Source: Rhodospirillaceae bacterium (GTDB lineage Bacteria; Pseudomonadota; Alphaproteobacteria; Rhodospirillales; Rhodospirillaceae). From it: a DNA stretch of 64,000 nt. Positions 49,346-60,073 of this stretch are shown here, piece by piece. Within the stretch, counting starts at the first letter, position 1. Every line of letters starts with the position of its first letter. The position numbers were made by a program, and so were the translations under genes. The DNA is taken from contig JAYRJU010000009.1 in assembly GCA_041906145.1 (NCBI GenBank), forward strand, positions 96,879-160,878. Direction: 5' to 3'. The notes under the pieces were generated by a model. The model saw nothing but the letters and a program-made list of their open reading frames with translations. It ran no database searches and was not told the origin of the DNA.

Positions 49346-49822
49346 TTATGCGCCGTTATGGCGAGACCAGACTCTAAGTTCTCCGTCGGTCCTGAACGCG
49401 AGAACAGTGTACGGATCGGCCCTGCCATCGGGCGATTCCATTCCCGGCGCGCCAATGGGCATGCCCGGTACCGAAAGTCCCCGTACGTTGTCGGGGCGCT
49501 CGCGCAAGAGCCGCTCGATGTCCGCGGGCGGCACATGGCCTTCGATGATGTACTTGTCGACCACGCCCGTGTGGCAGGCCCAGAGGTCGTAGGGGATATC
49601 GAGTTGCTTATTCACTTCAGCCAGCGGGCGCGACGTGACCATCTCAACCACAAAAATCTTTTCAACGACGGCAACCCAGTCAAGGCAGCACGCGCAGTGC
49701 GGATCGCGGTAGAGCGTTAGCCGATAAGGTGAGGAGGCGGCGCGGCCCGCTCCAGTGCGCGCAAGGACAGCCAGCGCGACCCCGCCCATTAAAGCTTTGC
49801 GACGGCTTAAGTCTCCAGTCAT
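49346..49822 (-). CDS. DUF411 metal-binding periplasmic protein
   Basis: Tat-like SRRKALMGG signal, CACC, CHTGVV..YIIEGHVP and VPGMPIGAPGME motifs. Confidence 0.8.
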   Translation of the reverse strand: MTGDLSRRKALMGGVALAVLARTGAGRAASSPYRLTLYRDPHCACCLDWVAVVEKIFVVEMVTSRPLAEVNKQLDIPYDLWACHTGVVDKYIIEGHVPPADIERLLRERPDNVRGLSVPGMPIGAPGMESPDGRADPYTVLAFRTDGELRVWSRHNGA

Positions 49823-49880: not shown

Positions 49881-50261
49881 CTATTCCACGCCGTTCATCT
49901 CGCGCTCCACGTCCCGGAACCGGTATTGGAGGGCGATCATGGTGGCTTTAACCGGCCGCAGGGCCAGCCCGGCGGTCAGGCTGATGAAGGCCGGCCAAAT
50001 CACGAAATGGACCCAGATGGGCGGCGTCACGAAGCGATCGAAAAGCAGGGCCGCGACCGCGGTGATAATGCAGAGCGGCATCATGATGAAGAAAGCAGGT
50101 CCGTCGGCGGTGTCGTGGCCCGCGAAGCTCAGGCCGCAGACCTCGCAGCCCGGCCGCACGGTAAGGTAGCCCTCGAAGAGCCGTCCTCGGCCGCAGCGCG
50201 GGCAGCGGCAGAAAAGTCCGGCGACGGCGAGCGGCGCGCGCGGCTTATGGGATGTGGACAT
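49881..50261 (-). CDS. DUF983 membrane protein
   Basis: CPRCGRGRLFEGYL...CEVCG zinc-ribbon-like N-terminus followed by two TM helices. This family is commonly near cta genes. Confidence 0.8.
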   Translation of the reverse strand: MSTSHKPRAPLAVAGLFCRCPRCGRGRLFEGYLTVRPGCEVCGLSFAGHDTADGPAFFIMMPLCIITAVAALLFDRFVTPPIWVHFVIWPAFISLTAGLALRPVKATMIALQYRFRDVEREMNGVE

Positions 50262-50342: not shown

Positions 50343-51500
50343 ATGCCGCGCCGTACCGGTCACCTCCCGCGTATTCTCGCCGTCCTTTTTACGCTAGGGC
50401 TGGCAAGCGCCTGCGCGGCTCCCGCGCGAATCGCCTATACCGCGGCCGAGCAGCGTGCGGCTGTGCCGCCGGGATTCGCGGATGTCCGCCTGTCGATTTC
50501 GGAGCGCCCCGAGGCCGAGAAGCTCGTCGCGCTTTTCCGCACCCAACGCGATGCCCGCGGGCGGCCCCTCGAAATTCTGTCGTTATCCGGCGGCGGGGCG
50601 AATGGGGCCTTCGGTGCGGGGGTTCTCTATGGCTGGAGCCAGCACGGCGACCGCCCCGCCTTTGACGTGGTCACCGGCATCAGTACAGGCGCGCTGGCCG
50701 CGCCGTTCGCATTCCTCGGTCCGGCTTATGATGAAGCCCTGAAGGCCGGTTACACGAGCGGTCGGTCGGCGGAACTTCTCGACTTCCGAGGCCTGCTCGC
50801 ATTTTTTCGGCCCAGCCTTTTCAGCGGTCGCCCGCTCGCGCGGCTGGTCGAGGACCTCGTCGACGATCAGGTCGTCGCGGCCGTCGCCAGGGAGCACAAA
50901 GCGGGGCGGCGCCTGCTGGTCGGCACCACCAACCTCGATACTCAGGCGCTCACGCTGTGGGATATGGGCGCGATCGCCGCGGCGGGCGGGCCCCGCGCGA
51001 CCAAGCTGTTCCGTACTGTGCTGGTAGCCTCGGCGAGTGTGCCCGGCGTCTTCCCGCCGGTGATGGTCGAGGTTGAAGCCAACGGGCGTCGGTTCGCCGA
51101 AATGCATGTGGACGGAAGCGCGATTTCGTCGTTTTTCGCCGTACCCAATTCCCTTTTGCTGTGGACGGGGCAAGACACAAATGAGCTTAAGGCGCGGCTG
51201 TATGTGTTGATCAACGGTGCGCTCGACGAGGATTTCGCCGTCACGCCGAACGAGACGCTGCCGATCCTGCGGCGGAGTTTCGATGTCGCCAGTAAGACCA
51301 ATACCCGCACCGAACTTACCGCTGTCGCCGCTTTCGCTGAACGAAACGGCCTCGCGCTGCGCATGAGTCATGTGCCGCCGGGCGTGAACCCGTCGCCACT
51401 CGATTTCGATCAGCAGCGCATGACGGCGTTGTTCGAACAGGGGCGGGCGGCCGGCGCTGCAGGAGCGGCGTGGGAGGATCTGAAAGCCTTAGATCCCTAA
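50343..51500 (+). CDS. patatin-like phospholipase, predicted lipoprotein
   Basis: Lipobox LGLASAC, oxyanion SGGGANGAFGAG, nucleophile GISTGA and catalytic Asp HVDGS. Confidence 0.85.
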   Translation: MPRRTGHLPRILAVLFTLGLASACAAPARIAYTAAEQRAAVPPGFADVRLSISERPEAEKLVALFRTQRDARGRPLEILSLSGGGANGAFGAGVLYGWSQHGDRPAFDVVTGISTGALAAPFAFLGPAYDEALKAGYTSGRSAELLDFRGLLAFFRPSLFSGRPLARLVEDLVDDQVVAAVAREHKAGRRLLVGTTNLDTQALTLWDMGAIAAAGGPRATKLFRTVLVASASVPGVFPPVMVEVEANGRRFAEMHVDGSAISSFFAVPNSLLLWTGQDTNELKARLYVLINGALDEDFAVTPNETLPILRRSFDVASKTNTRTELTAVAAFAERNGLALRMSHVPPGVNPSPLDFDQQRMTALFEQGRAAGAAGAAWEDLKALDP

Positions 51501-51576: not shown

Positions 51577-52407
51577 TTAGCCGCCAAACGTGCGGACCGG
51601 GGCGCCGAGGAGCCAGTAGACCCACACGAACAGGAACAGCCACACCACGTCAACGAAGTGCCAGTACCAGGCAGCGGCCTGGAAGCCGATGTGCTTATGG
51701 GGCGAGAACTGGCCTTTCGCGGCGCGGAAGCCACAGACGATCAGGAAGACGGTGCCGACGAACACGTGGAAGCCGTGGAACCCCGTGGCGAGGTAGAAGG
51801 CGGACGGATAGATGCCGTCCGTCAGCTTGAACGTCGCGTGGTGGTATTCGTAGACCTGCAGGCCAAGGAAAAGGGCGCCCAGGGCCGCGGTGATGAAGAT
51901 CCACTTGGCGGCCTTCTGGTTATTGCCTTCTTCGATGTAGATGTGCGCGCGCGTGACGGTTCCGCCCGAGGTGAGCAGGATCACGGTGTTGTAGAACGGC
52001 AGTTCCCAGGCTTCGAGCGGCGTGATGCCGGCCGGCGGCCACTGCAGGGTCGAGGTCGAGAAGCCCAGTGCGTTATGGAAGAAGGCCCAGAAGAAGGCGA
52101 CGAAGAACATCACTTCCGAGGTGATGAACAGGGCCATGCCGAGGCGCAGGCCGTGGCTGACTTCTGCGGTGTGCGCCTTTTCCTTCACCGACTCGCTGAT
52201 GATGTCGCGCCACCACATCCACATCGTCATAAGCACGAGGACGAAGCCGGGCAGCAGCTTAAAGACGCCTGGCTCCATGCCGAACACAGGCACCTTGTGG
52301 AAGAACAGGACCGCGCCGATGGCGAGGATCAGCACCGAGAAGGAACCCATTGCCGGCCAGGGGCTCGGGTTCACCATGTGGAAGTTATGTTTGGCGTGTC
52401 CGCTCAT
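51577..52407 (-). CDS. ctaE: cytochrome c oxidase subunit III
   Basis: HNFHMVNPSPWP, ITSEVMFF and FHGFHVFVGT motifs; 276 aa. Confidence 0.96.
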   Translation of the reverse strand: MSGHAKHNFHMVNPSPWPAMGSFSVLILAIGAVLFFHKVPVFGMEPGVFKLLPGFVLVLMTMWMWWRDIISESVKEKAHTAEVSHGLRLGMALFITSEVMFFVAFFWAFFHNALGFSTSTLQWPPAGITPLEAWELPFYNTVILLTSGGTVTRAHIYIEEGNNQKAAKWIFITAALGALFLGLQVYEYHHATFKLTDGIYPSAFYLATGFHGFHVFVGTVFLIVCGFRAAKGQFSPHKHIGFQAAAWYWHFVDVVWLFLFVWVYWLLGAPVRTFGG

Positions 52408-52430
52408 GGAAATGATCCCTCTACGTCTCT

Positions 52431-53045
52431 CTAATTGGTGGCGCCGCCAGCTTCCGTAGAAGCGGGCGTAATGGATTTGGATTCAGCGCTGTCTTCCACC
52501 GGGAAGCCGTCTTTGGAACGGAAGAAGGTGTACGACAGGGTAATGGTCTTCACTTCTTCGGTGTGTTCGTCGCTGACGAGCGCCGGGTCCACGTAGAAGG
52601 TGACGCCCAATTCAGCACTCTGGCCGGGGGCGAGAATTTGCTCCTGGAAGCAGAAGCATTCGATCTTATTGAAGTACTGACCGATCTTGTCCGGAGTGAC
52701 GTTGAACGTCGCCGTGCCGGTGGTTGTCTCGATCCCCATGTTGGTGGCCGTGTAGTGGATGGTCACCGTTTCGCCGAGCTTCGTCGTGACCGACGGCTGC
52801 GAGGGTGTGAACTTCCACGGCAGTTGGGGATCGGTATTGGCGTCAAACCGCACCGTAACCGGGCGGTCGATAATCTGGGTCGTGTTTGCCGCCACGATCT
52901 GCGGATCGCCGCCGATGCCGATCGCGCGGCAGAAGGCGTCGTAATAGGGCACGAGCGCGAATGCACACCCCACCATCACCGCGGCTCCCCCAAGGGAAGC
53001 CGCGGCGACGCGGGCGTTACGGCGTTTCAGGTTGGACTTGTCCAT
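52431..53045 (-). CDS. ctaG: cytochrome c oxidase assembly protein CtaG/Cox11
   Basis: N-terminal TM helix, the copper motif IECFCFQEQ and VTFYVDP. Confidence 0.95.
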   Translation of the reverse strand: MDKSNLKRRNARVAAASLGGAAVMVGCAFALVPYYDAFCRAIGIGGDPQIVAANTTQIIDRPVTVRFDANTDPQLPWKFTPSQPSVTTKLGETVTIHYTATNMGIETTTGTATFNVTPDKIGQYFNKIECFCFQEQILAPGQSAELGVTFYVDPALVSDEHTEEVKTITLSYTFFRSKDGFPVEDSAESKSITPASTEAGGATN

Positions 53046-53069
53046 TACCTTTTGTGCCTTATGCGCTGA

Positions 53070-54719
<1,650 letters not shown>

Positions 54720-55565
54720 CTATTGAGCCGAGGCAAGTTTCACGCTGTCCGCCGTGGCGGGCGTGAGGCCGGCTTTTTGTTGTTCAACCCAGCGCTGGTA
54801 CTCTTCCTTGCTGACCGCATCGACAACGATCGGCATGAAGGAGTGGTCGACGCCGCACAGTTCCGAGCACTGGCCGTAGTAGCGGCCCGGTTTGGTGATG
54901 CGCGTCCAGGTTTCGTTGATGCGGCCCGGCATATTGTCGAGTTTCACGCCGAAGGCCGGGATCGTCCAAGCATGGATCACGTCGTTGGCGGTGAAGAGCA
55001 GGCGGATGTTGGTATCGACCGGCAGGATGACGTGGCGGTCGGTTTCGAGGAGGCGGTGCTGACCGGCCTTCACGTCGATTTCCGCATCGGGGATTGCGAT
55101 CGCATCGAAGGAAACCCCCGTGTCCGGGTATTCGTAAGACCAAAACCACTGATTGCCCGTGATCTTGAGGGTCATTTCAGCTTCGGTGGTGTGATCGAGG
55201 TAGTAGAGGATGCGGTAGGACGGAACCGCGATGCCCACCAAGATGAAGACCGGAACGATGGTCCAAATCACTTCGATGAGCGTGTTATGCGACCACTTGG
55301 CCGGCACCGGATTGCGCTTCTCGTTGAAGCGGAAGATGCAGATCAGGAGCAAGATCGCCACGAAAACGCTGATGACGGTGATGATCCACAGGAGGAGCGT
55401 GTGGAAATCATGGAGCATTTCGGCTTGAGGAGTCGCCGGAGTCTGGATGCCGAGCTGCCACTCCGTTGGGAAGGAGGGGGTGGGCATTTGCTCAGCGGCA
55501 AACGCGGTCCCCATGGAAAAGATGCTCGAAACGACGGCGCCAAGCGCCAATGCCAAACGACTCAC
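54720..55565 (-). CDS. ctaC: cytochrome c oxidase subunit II
   Basis: CuA motif HAWTIP...CSELCGVDHSFM. I chose the GTG start at 55565 (GGAGA 7 nt upstream; signal-like VSRLALALGAVVSSIF). The track ORF to 55670 begins with TTG. Confidence 0.93.
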   Translation of the reverse strand: MSRLALALGAVVSSIFSMGTAFAAEQMPTPSFPTEWQLGIQTPATPQAEMLHDFHTLLLWIITVISVFVAILLLICIFRFNEKRNPVPAKWSHNTLIEVIWTIVPVFILVGIAVPSYRILYYLDHTTEAEMTLKITGNQWFWSYEYPDTGVSFDAIAIPDAEIDVKAGQHRLLETDRHVILPVDTNIRLLFTANDVIHAWTIPAFGVKLDNMPGRINETWTRITKPGRYYGQCSELCGVDHSFMPIVVDAVSKEEYQRWVEQQKAGLTPATADSVKLASAQ

Positions 55566-55893
55566 ACTCTGTCTCCATTGCAACCCAGCAGGTGGCCACC
55601 CTTTAAGGGGCCGGACCGGGCGGTTCAACCGATATTTTTTGGGCGTTTGCAAATTCCCCTGCCGCGCCAATGGGTTCCGCAGAATCCCTCAGTGCCGCCC
55701 CGCGCGGAGACTAACCGAATGGGCTTCTCACGTAAAGGTAAAGCCCCGTATTCACAAAGGGTTGTTAACCCTTTCGGCCGTGTAAGTTTTCCGCAGCCCG
55801 CGCGCTCGTCTGTGACAGATCAAAGGGTTTTGTTTAACCGGCCGGTCGGTTAGACAGGCGCGAGACTCTGGTGCGCGCTTCAGGAGAATTTTG

Positions 55894-56046
55894 GTGAACG
55901 CAGTTCCGCCGCATGATTCCAATAACGCCGATTCTAACGAGAAGGCCAAACGCCGCCGGCTGGTGCTGTTTGGCTTCGCCTTGGCCCTCGTGCCGGTGTT
56001 CATGTACGTGAGCTTCATCATCAAGACCGCCGTGCGTGGGCCTTAA
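55894..56046 (+). CDS. unlisted 50-aa single-TM peptide, possible small cytochrome-oxidase assembly protein
   Basis: GTG start preceded by AGGAGA. VNAVPPHDSNNADSNEKAKRRRLVLFGFALALVPVFMYVSFIIKTAVRGP has a positive-inside charge cluster and one TM helix. Its stop is 9 nt before the DUF420 ATG. It is below the track length cutoff. Confidence 0.5.
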   Translation: MNAVPPHDSNNADSNEKAKRRRLVLFGFALALVPVFMYVSFIIKTAVRGP

Positions 56047-56055
56047 GGACGAGTG

Positions 56056-56487
56056 ATGAGCACAGCCACCGTCCTTCCGCACGTCAACGCGGTCTTGAAT
56101 GCGCTTTCAACGATCCTGCTGATTATCGGATTCGTCCTCATCCGCTCCGGACGGCGCGAGCAGCACCGCAAGGTCATGTTGTCCGCGCTTATCGTCTCCG
56201 GCGTTTTCCTGATCAGCTATCTGACCTATCACTTCACCGCGCCGACATTTGTCTTCCCAGGCACGGGTTGGACCAGACCGGTCTACTTCGGCATGCTGAT
56301 CAGTCACGTCGTGTTGGCGACGATCGTGACGCCAATGGTCGTGGTGACCGCGTACCGTGCGCTGAAGGGCACATTCGACCGCCATAAGGCGATCGCGCGC
56401 TGGACCATCGGCGCGTGGCTATATGTTACCGTAACGGGTGTGCTGATTTACGTGATCCTGTACCACGTCTATCCGCCTTCGGCTTAA
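56056..56487 (+). CDS. DUF420 membrane protein (CtaM-like)
   Basis: LPHVNAVLNALSTILLIIGFVLIR..HRKVMLSA..FLISYLTYH, four TM helices, 143 aa. Confidence 0.85.
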   Translation: MSTATVLPHVNAVLNALSTILLIIGFVLIRSGRREQHRKVMLSALIVSGVFLISYLTYHFTAPTFVFPGTGWTRPVYFGMLISHVVLATIVTPMVVVTAYRALKGTFDRHKAIARWTIGAWLYVTVTGVLIYVILYHVYPPSA

Positions 56488-56491
56488 AAGC

Positions 56492-57934
56492 ATGGACGAG
56501 AAAGAAGTCCTCGCACGCACCATGCCGCCGCCGGTCGATACAGCGGTGGACGGCAATTTCGCCGGCAAGATCACGCCGCAGTTCATGCACGAGCTGCGCG
56601 GCTGGGTGAGTTTGCCCTTGGCCGCTTTGGCACTGGCGGGCCTGCTGGCGCTTCTGCTGGCCGCCTCGCGCGTGCCGGGCGCCGAGAAGGTGCTGACCTG
56701 GACCGGCGACAGCTTTTTCCAAAAAGGCCTCGTGGCGCATGTCACCTTCGCCTTCGTCATTTGGTACATGGGCGTGCACGGCGCGTTGACCGTACTGATG
56801 ACTGCGCAAATGCAAGGCGGGCGCGCCGCCCCGGGGTTTTTGTCGATCGCCATCGGGCGCCTCGGTGTTTTCGGCGCGTGGTTGAGCCTGTTCCTGCTGC
56901 TCGGACCTGTGCTCGCCGATTTGGGCGAGCCGTCACTCAATAACTACATCCCGGTCCTCGACCACCCGGTTTATTATGCCGGGCTCGCGTTGCTTGCCGG
57001 GTGCGTGGCCCTGCCGGTGCTGCGCCTGCTGGCGCTGATGGCGCGTGAGCGGAACCCGGACGCGGCGGTGTTCTCGGTGGCCGCCGCGGGACTCATATAC
57101 GTGCTGGCGCTGGTGTGTATCGCCGCGGCCGGCCTGACAATGCCGGAGAACGTCGGTCGTCAGGGCGCGAACGAATACTTGATGTGGGGCGGCGGCCATG
57201 TGCTGCAGTTCGCTAACACCGCGCTAATGCTGTGCTCCTTCTATCTGATCGCGCGCGCCGCACTCGGCGAAACGCCGCTGTCGGGCTCGTGGTTGAAGAC
57301 CATGATGCTTGTGCTGGTCGCGGGCGCGGCCGCCGGGCCGCTTCTGTATCTAACGCACGAGGCGGGCGGCGCCACTCAGCGCGATCTGTTCACGCGGCTT
57401 TATTGGTATGCGCTGCCGGTTCCGACCGCGATGGTGCTCGGAAGCGTCGGGCTTCTTCTGTTCCGCCGCTGGAAAGACGCCATGAAAGGCGCGCCGGAGA
57501 TCAAGGCGATCGCGGCGGCATTATTCTTGTTCGCATACGGCGGTGTGCTCGGCTTCTTCGAGGGCTCGATCGACACACGCACGCCCAGCCATTACCACGC
57601 GATGCTGATTGCGGTGACCCTGGCCTTCATGGCGCTCTACTTTGCACTTTTCCTGCCGCTGCTGGGCCTGCGGACCCAACGCAAGAAATTGCGTACCGCG
57701 ATGTACCTGCTGCTGGGCGGCGGTCAGTTCCTCCATTCGACCGGTCTATATCTAGCGGGTCTGGAAGGCGTGCTGCGCAAGACCCCCGGTGCGGCGCAAG
57801 GCCTTGATAGCCCTTGGAAGATCGCAAGCATGTCGTTGATGGGCCTCGGCGGCCTCATTGCGGTGGCCGGTGGCATCATCTTCATTTTTCTCGCGGGGAA
57901 AATGCTTATTGGCAAACCCGGACCGGACCGGTAG
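56492..57934 (+). CDS. divergent heme-copper oxidase subunit I-like 12-TM protein
   Basis: About 12 hydrophobic helices. By-eye collinearity with CtaD of this window at TM2 (LVAHVTFAF), TM6 (WGGGHVLQF), TM10 (DTRTPSHYHAML) and TM11 (FLHSTGLYLAGLEGVLRK). The TM7 HH pair is not conserved. Confidence 0.6.
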   Translation: MDEKEVLARTMPPPVDTAVDGNFAGKITPQFMHELRGWVSLPLAALALAGLLALLLAASRVPGAEKVLTWTGDSFFQKGLVAHVTFAFVIWYMGVHGALTVLMTAQMQGGRAAPGFLSIAIGRLGVFGAWLSLFLLLGPVLADLGEPSLNNYIPVLDHPVYYAGLALLAGCVALPVLRLLALMARERNPDAAVFSVAAAGLIYVLALVCIAAAGLTMPENVGRQGANEYLMWGGGHVLQFANTALMLCSFYLIARAALGETPLSGSWLKTMMLVLVAGAAAGPLLYLTHEAGGATQRDLFTRLYWYALPVPTAMVLGSVGLLLFRRWKDAMKGAPEIKAIAAALFLFAYGGVLGFFEGSIDTRTPSHYHAMLIAVTLAFMALYFALFLPLLGLRTQRKKLRTAMYLLLGGGQFLHSTGLYLAGLEGVLRKTPGAAQGLDSPWKIASMSLMGLGGLIAVAGGIIFIFLAGKMLIGKPGPDR

Positions 57935-57992
57935 ACCAAGCGCGCGGAACGGTCCCTTCCTGGCGGTTGGGTATTAGGGATTCCAATACGTT

Positions 57993-58859
57993 ATGCAAAT
58001 TCGCAGTTACATTGAGCTGATGAAGCTGCGCATCGGCTTTCTCATCGCGGTCAGCGCGATGGCGGGCTATGCGGCAGTAGCGAGCCATGTCGATGCATGG
58101 CAGCTCGTTGTGCTGTTCGTGGCCATGGTGCTCGGTTCGTCGGGCTCGGCCGTCTTCAATCAATACTACGACCGCGACATCGACCGCCTGATGGCGCGCA
58201 CAGCGAACCGTCCGCTCGCGGCCGGTACGATGGCCGACGCGCGCAAGGCGCTGCTGTTCGCCGGTGTGCTGCTCGTGACGGGATGCGTGCTCGCCGCGAT
58301 AGCCTTTAATTGGGTTGTCGCGACCCACCTGTTCCTTGGCGCCTTTGTGTACGGCGTCGTCTACACCGTGTGGCTCAAGCGCCTTCACTGGACCAACATC
58401 ATCATCGGCGGCGCCGCCGGCAGCTTCGCCGTGCTCGCGGGCGCGGCCGCGGTGGATCCAAACATCTGGCTGCTGCCCACACTGATGGCGATCACGCTGT
58501 TCCTGTGGACCCCCTCGCACTTCTGGTCGCTCGCCATCCTCATCAAGGACGACTACGCGAAAGCCGGCGTTCCGATGCTGCCCGTCATCGCGGGTGACGC
58601 GACCTGCGCCAAATGGATCTTCGGCAACACCGTTCTGCTCGTCATCTCGGCCATGCTGCCGGTGGCGTTCGGTGAACTCGGCCTGCTGTACGGCGTGATC
58701 TCCACGGCGTTCGGTGCGCGCTTCCTGTTCCTTAACGTGAAGCTGATGAAGGACTCGAGCCGCGATCTCGCGCGCCGGAATTTCCTATTCTCCATGCAGT
58801 ACCTGGCAGGCGTGTTCCTCGCCGTGGTCGTGGACAAGCACGTCCCACTACCCTTCTAG
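57993..58859 (+). CDS. ctaB: protoheme IX farnesyltransferase (heme O synthase)
   Basis: UbiA-family motifs NQYYDRDIDRLMARTANRPL and YTVWLKR, with nine TM helices. Confidence 0.95.
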   Translation: MQIRSYIELMKLRIGFLIAVSAMAGYAAVASHVDAWQLVVLFVAMVLGSSGSAVFNQYYDRDIDRLMARTANRPLAAGTMADARKALLFAGVLLVTGCVLAAIAFNWVVATHLFLGAFVYGVVYTVWLKRLHWTNIIIGGAAGSFAVLAGAAAVDPNIWLLPTLMAITLFLWTPSHFWSLAILIKDDYAKAGVPMLPVIAGDATCAKWIFGNTVLLVISAMLPVAFGELGLLYGVISTAFGARFLFLNVKLMKDSSRDLARRNFLFSMQYLAGVFLAVVVDKHVPLPF

Positions 58860-59677: not shown

Positions 59678-60073
59678 TTACATCAAATCAACGGCGTGTT
59701 TTTTGAGGTCGGCGAGCTCGCAGTGTTCGAGTGCGCCCTCGTGGGTGGCTGTCAATACGACCTTTGGCGCCTGGCCCGCGGCGAACGCCTGCTGCCAGCG
59801 TGGGGCGCACAGGCACCAGCGATCGCCCGGATTGAGGCCGGGGAAGGCATACTCTGGAATCGGCGTAGAGAGGTCGTTGCCCGATCGTTTGCTGTAGGCG
59901 AGGAACTCGGCGGTCATGACCACACACACGGTGTGCGAACCAATATCGCTGGGGCCTGTATTGCAGCAACCGTCGCGGAAGAAGCCTGTGACGGGCTTGG
60001 CCGAGCACATCTGCAGGGCACCGCCGAGGACATTGCGCGCGGGACGCTGCTGTTCGCTCATATCACGCGGCAT
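59678..60073 (-). CDS. DUF2237 protein
   Basis: GFFRDGCCNTGPSDIGSHTVC and GDRWCLCAPRW, the Cys-rich motifs I recall for DUF2237. An alternative ATG lies at 60061. Confidence 0.8.
   Translation of the reverse strand: MPRDMSEQQRPARNVLGGALQMCSAKPVTGFFRDGCCNTGPSDIGSHTVCVVMTAEFLAYSKRSGNDLSTPIPEYAFPGLNPGDRWCLCAPRWQQAFAAGQAPKVVLTATHEGALEHCELADLKKHAVDLM

Follow-up and report, generated by a model that had tools for sequence, protein, structure and literature searches.

Introduction

The six histidine ligands of subunit I have been treated as the signature of the heme-copper oxidase (HCO) superfamily. Twelve HCO families have been distinguished, and several of their active-site types support NO reduction (Murali et al., 2024; PMC11214002). 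The gNOR, in which one histidine is replaced by aspartate, has been called 'the first example' of an HCO family with a substituted active-site histidine, and the eNOR carries a heme a variant in both of its sites, with CtaA encoded in many eNOR operons (PMC11214002). In this study, we analysed HCOL, a 480-residue paralogue of HCO subunit I that is encoded at 56492..57934 on the plus strand of a 64,000-nucleotide stretch of a Rhodospirillaceae bacterium genome (GenBank assembly GCA_041906145.1, contig JAYRJU010000009.1, positions 96,879 to 160,878 of the forward strand; the whole stretch is referred to here as the window). The family to which HCOL belongs is not among the twelve (PMC11214002), and it lacks the site for a second metal.

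The gene upstream of HCOL encodes a DUF420 protein, the family of the oxidase assembly factor CtaM. CtaM is required for active aa3/caa3 oxidases in Staphylococcus aureus and Bacillus subtilis and is dispensable for the insertion of hemes a and a3 (PMC9145763, PMC4958251); according to a 2026 study, it is part of a pathway for copper trafficking or efflux that supports oxidases (PMC13344008). The CtaM gene is not widespread in bacteria, being missing from Paracoccus denitrificans and Rhodobacter sphaeroides (PMC9145763), and among the Alphaproteobacteria it was found in a few members only (Hammer et al., 2016; PMC4958251). A 'simplified' variant of the COX operon is known in Caenispirillum and other Rhodospirillaceae, and the COX operon of these bacteria is without ctaB and SURF1 (PMC10411912). 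An initial annotation of the window, made from the sequence alone, had described the 480-residue protein as an oxidase scaffold that binds heme and has an incomplete CuB/Tyr site. Here, this description is examined by sequence, profile, predicted structure and comparative genomics, and the possible function of HCOL is discussed.

Results

Fold and heme ligands of HCOL

HCOL matches the COX1 model PF00115 with an E value of 1.5e-14 and 54.2 bits (cut-off 34.8), which bears out its earlier assignment to the COX1 family; CtaD, the subunit I of the aa3 oxidase encoded in the same window, scores 534.8 bits. None of the NCBIfam models matches HCOL at E <= 0.1, and CtaD scores 709 bits on TIGR02891. 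The AlphaFold2 model of HCOL, computed with 21 homologues, has a pLDDT of 86 and a pTM of 0.88. A Foldseek search of the PDB with this model returned HCO subunits I only, headed by ba3 of Thermus thermophilus (TM-score 0.75, probability 1.0) and followed by A-family oxidases, cbb3 and cNOR, so that the proposed subunit-I fold also holds. A phmmer search of the PDB sequences with the 480-residue sequence gave no match.

Residue equivalences were therefore read from a profile built on 118 diverse members (24-67% identity to the window protein). The full length of this profile aligns to subunit I of Thermus ba3 with an E value of 3e-27; the residue coordinates were checked by translation. The informative positions, with transmembrane (TM) helices numbered as in subunit I, are as follows.

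56738..56740, plus strand: H83, equivalent to ba3 H72 (ba3 motif LTLHG), the TM2 axial ligand of the low-spin heme; invariant
57185..57211, plus strand: TM6 motif W232-G-G-G-H236-V-L-Q239-F240, which aligns to WWTGHPIVY of ba3
57341..57346, plus strand: L284-L285 at the place of ba3 H282/H283, the TM7 metal ligands, which are lost (translation GPLLYLTHE)
57590..57598, plus strand: H367-Y368-H369 in TM10, equivalent to ba3 H384/H386 (PGHFHL), from the profile alignment
57776..57781, plus strand: R429-K430, equivalent to ba3 R449/R450 (VPRRA), which bind the heme propionates, from the profile alignment

H83 is invariant in both HCOL alignments (A1 and A2). By equivalence to ba3, H367 is the proximal ligand of the high-spin heme and H369 the second ligand of the low-spin heme. 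W232, G235, H236, Q239, H367, Y368 and K430 are invariant in the 118 members, and H369 and R429 are conserved in at least 90% of them. Thus, the TM2 histidine and the TM10 HxH pair are kept, as had been read by eye. The invariant or near-invariant motifs of the family are H-V in TM2, N-N-Y-x-P in the loop between TM3 and TM4, E228-x3-W-G-G-G-H-x-L-Q-F in TM6, P-[AS]-H-Y-H in TM10 and R-K in the region of ba3 R449/R450, and they persist down to 24-27% identity. With bis-histidine coordination of the low-spin heme, a proximal histidine for the high-spin heme and the propionate-binding R/K pair, HCOL keeps the residues needed to hold two hemes, and on this ligand pattern it would be a heme-binding protein.

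The second-metal site is a different matter. H236 corresponds to H233, the CuB ligand in TM6 of ba3, and F240 to Y237, the cross-linked tyrosine; of 130 members, 98 have F in this column and only six have Y, in agreement with the retained histidine and the Tyr-to-Phe change noted earlier. The glutamine three residues after the TM6 histidine (Q239) is invariant and is shared with eNOR. In TM7 the initial annotation had seen the histidine pair reduced to 'TH'. This requires correction: ba3 H282/H283 align to L284/L285, and the histidine of the 'TH' (H289) lies about five residues past the ligand position and is replaced by F, Y, T or S in other members, so both TM7 histidines are lost and not one. 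The pair is present in none of the 130 HCOL representatives, and there is no conserved histidine in that stretch. Only H236 therefore remains of the three histidines by which a second-metal site of the HCO superfamily is recognized. On one reading of a single profile alignment, the ba3 K-channel residues S309 and T312 also fall at non-polar consensus positions in HCOL. These results confirm HCOL as a genuine subunit-I homologue with a 12-TM fold that is without the second-metal (copper or iron) site, and the description as a heme-binding scaffold with an incomplete CuB/Tyr site is supported by all four lines of analysis.

Relationship to other HCO subunits I

The hidden Markov model (HMM) of the HCOL family scores 175-187 bits on two eNOR-type subunits I, 98 bits on ba3 and 2-9 bits on A-type CtaD proteins, with 2.4 bits on the CtaD of the window; the eNOR-type subunits were identified by operon content and literature description and not by a curated model. 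Against the PDB sequences, the HCOL profile matches only ba3 and one further oxidase, 7DEG (63 bits). Taken with the shared TM6 motif and with the AHH motif that eNOR keeps in TM7, these scores indicate that HCOL is a paralogue of eNOR subunit I minus the FeB histidine pair. The motifs of HCOL are collinear with those of the window's CtaD, as the initial annotation had it, and the relevant relative is instead the eNOR-type subunit I of the B-family branch. NO reductase activity by the canonical two-metal mechanism is unlikely.

Members of the family are named 'cbb3-type cytochrome c oxidase subunit I' by the NCBI pipeline. An identity with the cbb3 subunit CcoN was considered and rejected, since the profile search of the PDB finds ba3 and 7DEG and no cbb3 chain, the cbb3 structures rank beneath those of the B and A families, and ccoO and ccoP are not nearby; the name is a generic mislabel. 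Two JGI names attached to single relatives, 'tetrahydromethanopterin S-methyltransferase subunit F' and 'YozB (DUF420 family)', are likewise misleading.

Size and distribution of the family

The protein is not the orphan that it had been taken for. A word-indexed search found at least 997 relatives, and when the 50%-identity representatives were searched exhaustively, 1,041 HCOL clusters were obtained at E <= 1e-3, 242 of them at E <= 1e-30. A motif scan specific to the subfamily of the window protein detected it in 449 species-level GTDB genomes; nearly all of the 80 subfamily loci retrieved are from Rhodospirillales-type Alphaproteobacteria, and cultured examples among the hosts are Caenispirillum bisanense, C. 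salinarum, Novispirillum itersonii and Paramagnetospirillum kuznetsovii. At about 29% identity to the window protein there is also a remote subfamily, which comprises 7,261 clusters (90% identity) at E <= 1e-10 and reaches the Rickettsiales (for example strain Ac37b) and the Gammaproteobacteria (for example Marithrix).

Gene neighbourhoods

Conservation of the gene order around HCOL was counted over 79 loci of the window's subfamily with a full-length HCOL gene, the denominators being the loci with enough flank. A DUF420 gene lies directly upstream on the same strand in 73 of 75 loci (71 scored plus two with overlapping genes). The gene directly downstream is ctaB in 68 of 75, ctaC (of ctaCDGE) is divergent in 60 of 72, and a small peptide gene occupies the equivalent position in 53 of 72. 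The linkage to heme O synthase and a CtaM-like gene first seen in the window is thus general in this subfamily. In the Caenispirillum and Novispirillum members, which are about 40% identical, the order DUF420-HCOL-ctaB is kept without an adjoining oxidase cluster. L063 has the order ctaA-open reading frame (ORF)-ctaB-DUF420-HCOL-CuA subunit, and L079 (Paramagnetospirillum) has ctaA-CuA subunit II-eNOR-type subunit I-cytochrome b/FeS protein-HCOL-CuA subunit. These two are the only loci in which ctaA was found (motif and tblastn searches) in 1.49 Mb of loci, nearly all from Rhodospirillales-type Alphaproteobacteria; motif scans of the same 1.49 Mb detected no SURF1-like ORF. The CtaA of L063 (183-1325) is most similar, at about 60% identity, to those of the Betaproteobacteria Nitrosospira and Nitrosovibrio, a similarity suggesting that the heme A module, or the entire cluster, was horizontally transferred. 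A DUF2189 membrane protein (cluster c4) recurs beside the oxidase/HCOL genes in L057, L064, L071, L073, L077 and L078.

The remote subfamily was sampled in 80 metagenome loci and five of six earlier loci (L085 duplicates L090), 62 of which have at least 4 kb of flank. An eNOR-type subunit I and/or its cytochrome b/4Fe-4S partner is nearby in 34 of these 62 loci and A-type oxidase genes in six; ctaA is nearby in 19, ctaB in 24 and DUF420 in five. In L089 the ctaA gene is immediately upstream of HCOL with a 24-nt spacer in an apparent operon. The two genes adjoin divergently in L086, and ctaA is two genes off in the Rickettsiales strain Ac37b. In L085 HCOL borders on a cluster that comprises cytochrome c, COX3, Sco, COX2, COX1, UbiA and Sco genes, and in L087 and L088 it lies among housekeeping genes in small, endosymbiont-like genomes. 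In L136 the order is ctaA, then CuA-II, eNOR-I, ctaB, Sco-like, cytochrome b/4Fe-4S/FlpD, orf175 and HCOL, which converge on DUF420 and Sco on the opposite strand. The HCOL clusters of L092 and L159 include SURF1, and in L124 it lies about 1.4 kb downstream of HCOL; recovery of SURF1 in these three loci by the same motif validates the motif search.

The eNOR-type clusters (L136, 5785-7831; L079, 7306-9462) encode a protein in which a cytochrome b N-terminal domain is fused to a 4Fe-4S dicluster and an FlpD-like domain, and a cytochrome b/Fe-S protein of that kind is mentioned in a 2026 preprint. The 175-residue ORF of L136, which lies between this fusion gene and HCOL, has no Pfam family.

Electron-input modules of other members

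The initial annotation had noted the absence of a partner subunit II. This stands for the locus in the window and not for the family as a whole. A subunit II with one TM helix and a cupredoxin domain with complete H...CxExCGxxHxxM ligands is encoded directly 3' of HCOL in L057, L059, L063, L066 and L079, and a CuA subunit is fused to the C-terminus of HCOL in three separate 50%-identity clusters (P0146, P0154 and P0160). Cytochrome b is fused to HCOL on two contigs, and most eNOR-type clusters have a cytochrome b/4Fe-4S gene upstream of HCOL. In a crude neighbour-joining tree, the rooting of which is unreliable, the CuA-linked members form one nested clade. The clade of the window protein has neither a CuA subunit II nor a cytochrome b fusion, and the sole CuA gene in the window is the ctaC of the A-type oxidase. 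An HCOL-CtaB fusion (P0190) is a singleton on one 5.6-kb contig and was not used as evidence.

The operon in the window and its surroundings

The genes of the locus and the region between the two divergent transcription units are as follows.

55894..56046, plus strand: micro-protein of 50 aa with one TM helix, from the ORF list; alternative TTG start at 55891 (51 aa)
56056..56487, plus strand: DUF420 (CtaM-like) membrane protein of 143 aa (PF04238); alternative start at 56053 (144 aa)
56492..57934, plus strand: HCOL, the 480-aa HCO subunit-I paralogue with at least 12 TM helices (PF00115, AlphaFold2, Foldseek and profile)
57993..58859, plus strand: ctaB, heme O synthase (protoheme IX farnesyltransferase), 288 aa, the last gene of the operon (TIGR01473, PF01040)
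55671..55893, strand-neutral: divergent intergenic region between ctaC and the peptide gene, from the gene coordinates
54720-55670, minus strand: ctaC, divergent from the peptide gene (Pfam/NCBIfam matches)
53070-54695, minus strand: ctaD (Pfam/NCBIfam matches)
52431-53045, minus strand: ctaG, Cox11 (Pfam/NCBIfam matches)
51577-52407, minus strand: ctaE (Pfam/NCBIfam matches)
51577..55670, minus strand: the ctaC-ctaD-ctaG-ctaE cluster as a whole, an A-family aa3 cluster of the 'simplified' type without ctaB and SURF1

The four plus-strand genes are separated by spacers of 9, 4 and 58 nt, and the ORF list together with the Pfam and NCBIfam matches leaves their coordinates, their spacing and the divergent ctaCDGE unchanged from the first description. 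The ctaB product is an equivalog match to TIGR01473 at 266.6 bits (cut-off 210.3) and matches PF01040 with an E value of 2e-53. Relative to orthologues at 83-91% protein identity, the ratio of nonsynonymous to synonymous substitution rates (dN/dS), read with dS near saturation, is 0.06-0.12 for HCOL, 0.06-0.09 for ctaB, 0.05-0.19 for DUF420 and 0.11-0.14 for the peptide. Each of the four is under purifying selection, and its level on HCOL is similar to that on ctaB; with these ratios and an arrangement that recurs in dozens of genomes, they are not chance ORFs. At the protein level, the window is 99% identical to a contig of a Rhodospirillaceae metagenome-assembled genome (L001).

The sole ctaB seen in or near the oxidase cluster is that of the HCOL operon, and because the displaced ctaB sits there, expression of this operon is probably required for aa3 biogenesis. 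The region 55671..55893 is probably a bidirectional control region. A promoter and terminator scan of the operon found no match to the sigma-70 consensus in 55671-55893, which weighs neither way. The longest ctaC ORF starts with a TTG at 55670 and encodes 316 aa with a long N-terminal extension, while the orthologues are called at 263-279 aa. Since the true ctaC start is probably further downstream, the divergent region is probably longer than 223 bp, its length being uncertain.

The membrane proteins of the window were screened by a hydropathy shortlist and Pfam. Neither ctaA nor SURF1 was found among these candidates or by motif and tblastn searches, as had been noted at the outset; this absence from the window is uninformative, because relatives carry ctaA or SURF1 beside HCOL. 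Beyond ctaE, a patatin-like gene on the plus strand (50343-51500) separates it from a DUF983 gene (49881-50261), and genes for a DUF411 protein (49346-49822) and an ammonium transporter come next. A DUF983 gene usually stands before SURF1. After ctaB, a DUF2237 gene (59678-60073) lies on the opposite strand, and its position is kept in many related loci.

The DUF420 protein and the micro-protein

The DUF420 protein matches PF04238 with an E value of 6.5e-42 over profile positions 1-130 of 130 and has conserved histidines at 9, 37, 59, 84, 110 and 137; by analogy with CtaM, four TM helices are expected. The CtaE (COX3) of the window matches the whole DUF420 Pfam model at a sub-threshold E value of 5.8e-5, and an hhalign comparison of DUF420 with COX3 gave an E value of 9e-5 over 134 collinear columns that correspond to the last four COX3 helices. 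As a weak lead, DUF420/CtaM and the last four helices of oxidase subunit III may thus be homologous, and with this likeness the operon could be read as a peptide, a subunit-III-like protein, a subunit-I-like protein and heme O synthase. The published idea that DUF420 represents half of CtaA was unsupported (hhalign of DUF420 with CtaA, E value of 0.15).

The micro-protein begins with a basic patch (KAKRRR) near the N-terminus, followed by one TM segment, and its conserved C-terminal sequence FMYVSFIxKTAxxGP runs to the stop codon. Family lengths are 46-51 aa, a gene of 46 aa having been called in another genome, and no Pfam or NCBIfam family matches it. In size and topology it is like small oxidase subunits such as subunit IIa of ba3, a likeness for which homology is not demonstrable.

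Discussion

The function that we tentatively favour for HCOL, with less than even confidence, is that of an accessory di-heme protein in the maturation of heme-A-dependent oxidases; it is probably not a terminal oxidase. The maturation role is preferred because heme A is common to the enzymes linked to HCOL (aa3 and eNOR), because its neighbours are assembly genes (ctaA, ctaB, Sco and DUF420) and because it is retained in small genomes; the recurrence of these linkages across the neighbourhoods surveyed speaks for it. We infer that the heme-handling or assembly role guessed at in the initial annotation is the best-supported direction. In the scheme envisaged, HCOL, the CtaM-like DUF420 protein and the 50-residue peptide would form a small membrane complex, which would act as an accessory factor on the cofactor route from CtaB through CtaA to subunit I, with the divergently transcribed aa3 oxidase as the likely client in this genome. 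A farnesylated heme (O or A) would be received in the canonical subunit-I pockets of HCOL, which might hold or redox-poise the heme during hand-over or might template the assembly of the real subunit I, and the late, copper-linked step would be handled by DUF420.

Several observations weigh against this proposal. The linkage to ctaA and ctaB has a trivial alternative, namely that users of heme O or A sit near such genes, as does cyoE within cyoABCDE. A CuA subunit II or a cytochrome b on some members is hard to explain for a pure chaperone, and such electron-input modules point to redox turnover. The strictly conserved heme sites and the polar distal pocket (H236, Q239, W232, N151 and Y152) are enzyme-like. 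Bacillus, Paracoccus and Rhodobacter make and insert heme A without HCOL, so that HCOL is not a universal requirement. Moreover, 16 of the 62 remote loci have none of the eNOR-type, A-type, ctaA, ctaB or DUF420 genes nearby. The case for a maturation role is built on fold, ligand pattern, conservation and gene linkage, and the proposal is put forward as a tentative one.

The main alternative, which we consider somewhat unlikely, is that HCOL is a stand-alone redox enzyme that works with hemes only. Electrons would then pass from CuA, cytochrome b or quinol to the low-spin and on to the high-spin heme, the distal pocket (His236, Gln239, Trp232 and the Asn/Tyr of the NNY loop) would replace the second metal, the substrate would be O2, NO, H2O2 or nitrite, and ctaB, ctaA and DUF420 would be nearby since the enzyme itself needs heme O/A and a CtaM-type factor. 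Such an enzyme would account for the CuA subunits II downstream of or fused to HCOL and for the cytochrome b fused or upstream in some members. It would also suit the invariance of both heme sites, the propionate R/K and the remodelled polar pocket down to 24-27% identity; the weak likeness of DUF420 to subunit III, by which the operon resembles a miniature oxidase operon; and the support of NO reduction by several HCO active-site types (Murali et al., 2024). However, no subunit II or visible donor accompanies HCOL in the clade of the window protein, in most alphaproteobacterial members or in the Rickettsiales members, the K-channel positions of ba3 S309/T312 are non-polar in the one profile alignment read, and in the eNOR clusters HCOL sits among assembly genes (Sco, ctaA, ctaB and DUF420) with no structural operon of its own. 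We also know of no HCO that functions without a second metal. Unlikely, and bolder still, is that the family is a catalytically active heme-only HCO branch whose His/Gln/Trp/Tyr pocket on a heme A-type cofactor carries out O2/NO chemistry, for example O2 capture or activation or an electron relay for heme A synthesis in micro-oxic cells. If this were so, thousands of Proteobacteria, the Rickettsiales among them, would have in this branch a missing component of their heme A biogenesis.

A more specific link to heme A synthesis would make HCOL a redox or O2-handling partner of CtaA that provides electrons or O2 for the O2-dependent conversion of heme O to heme A, especially in micro-oxic users of eNOR. 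To our knowledge no bacterial electron donor of CtaA has been identified, and the variable electron-input modules (CuA and cytochrome b) would suit an electron-consuming process; the ctaA-HCOL apparent operon of L089, the divergent neighbours of L086 and the ctaA gene of many eNOR clusters point the same way, and a 2026 preprint asks how O2 reaches CtaA in near-anoxic users of eNOR. We nevertheless regard a partnership with CtaA as improbable, since the subfamily of the window is linked to ctaB and DUF420 and not to ctaA, and a 12-helix scaffold with two hemes is elaborate for a relay. In addition, B. subtilis CtaA and CtaB make heme A in Escherichia coli without an HCOL-type partner. The absence of ctaA and SURF1 from the window, of the SURF1 motif from the 1.49 Mb of mostly Rhodospirillales-type loci, and of SURF1 and ctaB from the COX operon of these taxa (PMC10411912) could suggest instead that HCOL substitutes for a missing factor, as a non-homologous heme A synthase in place of CtaA or a heme a chaperone in place of SURF1. 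This is very improbable: ctaA lies beside HCOL in L063, L079, L084, L086 and L089 and is near it in 19 of 62 remote loci, SURF1 belongs to the HCOL cluster in two loci (L092 and L159) and lies about 1.4 kb downstream of HCOL in a third (L124), and a family that co-occurs with both is no general replacement for either. Both versions were therefore rejected, replacement of CtaA because ctaA adjoins HCOL in many loci and general replacement of SURF1 because L092, L159 and L124 carry it. Lastly, the loss of ligands once held to be universal and the weak Pfam score might be taken as marks of a decaying relic of an oxidase gene, or of an ORF artefact. That is scarcely credible for a gene with a dN/dS of 0.06-0.12, thousands of members with invariant motifs, a confident structure prediction and a conserved operon.

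The HCOL family is a branch of the HCO superfamily without the metal site, for which no clear published description was found. Specifically, the searchable literature yielded neither an HCO family that is without the histidine pair of TM7 nor a subunit-I-like protein that partners CtaA, CtaB or DUF420. The nearest mention is an unexplained 'eNOR scaffold protein', which may be the same as the HCOL family. The family breaks the six-histidine rule for subunit I, and it does so far beyond the single replaced histidine of gNOR, as two of the three second-metal ligands are missing throughout. As a maturation factor, HCOL would be an unrecognized player in the delivery of heme A to subunit I, which is an open question in bacteria and mitochondria, and would give DUF420/CtaM a functional context; as an enzyme, it would be the first HCO without a second metal. 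Since its members are misnamed as 'cbb3-type', counts of high-affinity oxidases are inflated in metagenomic surveys and in surveys of alphaproteobacterial and mitochondrial ancestry. The cultured hosts (Caenispirillum, Novispirillum and relatives of Magnetospirillum) make the function of HCOL directly testable.

Comparison with known oxidases and assembly factors

Among the known HCOs, the eNOR subunit I is the closest counterpart of HCOL. The two have the same fold, the same heme ligands and a TM6 motif of the form G-H-x-x-Q (WWGMGHSSQQ in eNOR and WGGGHxLQ in HCOL), and both are without the cross-link tyrosine; remote HCOL members lie inside eNOR operons with ctaA, ctaB and Sco, and one HCOL clade has a CuA subunit like eNOR-II. 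They differ in TM7, where eNOR has the AHH motif of its FeB site and HCOL has no conserved histidine. The HCOL of the window is also about 100 residues shorter and is without a subunit II, and in the Rhodospirillaceae HCOL goes with the aa3 oxidase rather than with eNOR. The best structural match is ba3 subunit I of T. thermophilus (1EHK/3S8F), in which the heme ligands, the propionate arginine pair and the TM6 histidine are collinear with those of HCOL; H282/H283 and Y237 are missing from HCOL, S309 and T312 are not conserved, and the HCOL locus has no gene for a CuA subunit II or a subunit IIa. CtaD of the A-family aa3 oxidase belongs to the same superfamily, with PF00115 and collinear ligand motifs in common, but it has the full CuB/Tyr site and the D-channel and is only distantly related. 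Replacement of canonical active-site residues has precedents in the HCO members gNOR and NOD. The gNOR, however, has a single His-to-Asp change and keeps its metal site and cupredoxin subunit, and NOD is derived from qNOR, whereas the HCOL family is without two of the three histidines and has no conserved replacement at these positions.

With regard to assembly factors, the gene upstream of HCOL encodes a full-length DUF420 protein like CtaM of S. aureus and B. subtilis, and ctaM adjoins ctaB in S. aureus; the CtaM of Firmicutes is without an HCO-like partner, whereas here DUF420 is tightly paired with HCOL. SURF1/Shy1 and CtaA/Cox15 are unrelated to HCOL in sequence and fold, and both occur in the same clusters as HCOL in some genomes. 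They keep the same genomic company of oxidase and heme A genes, and HCOL possibly shares with them a role in the handling of heme a between CtaA and subunit I.

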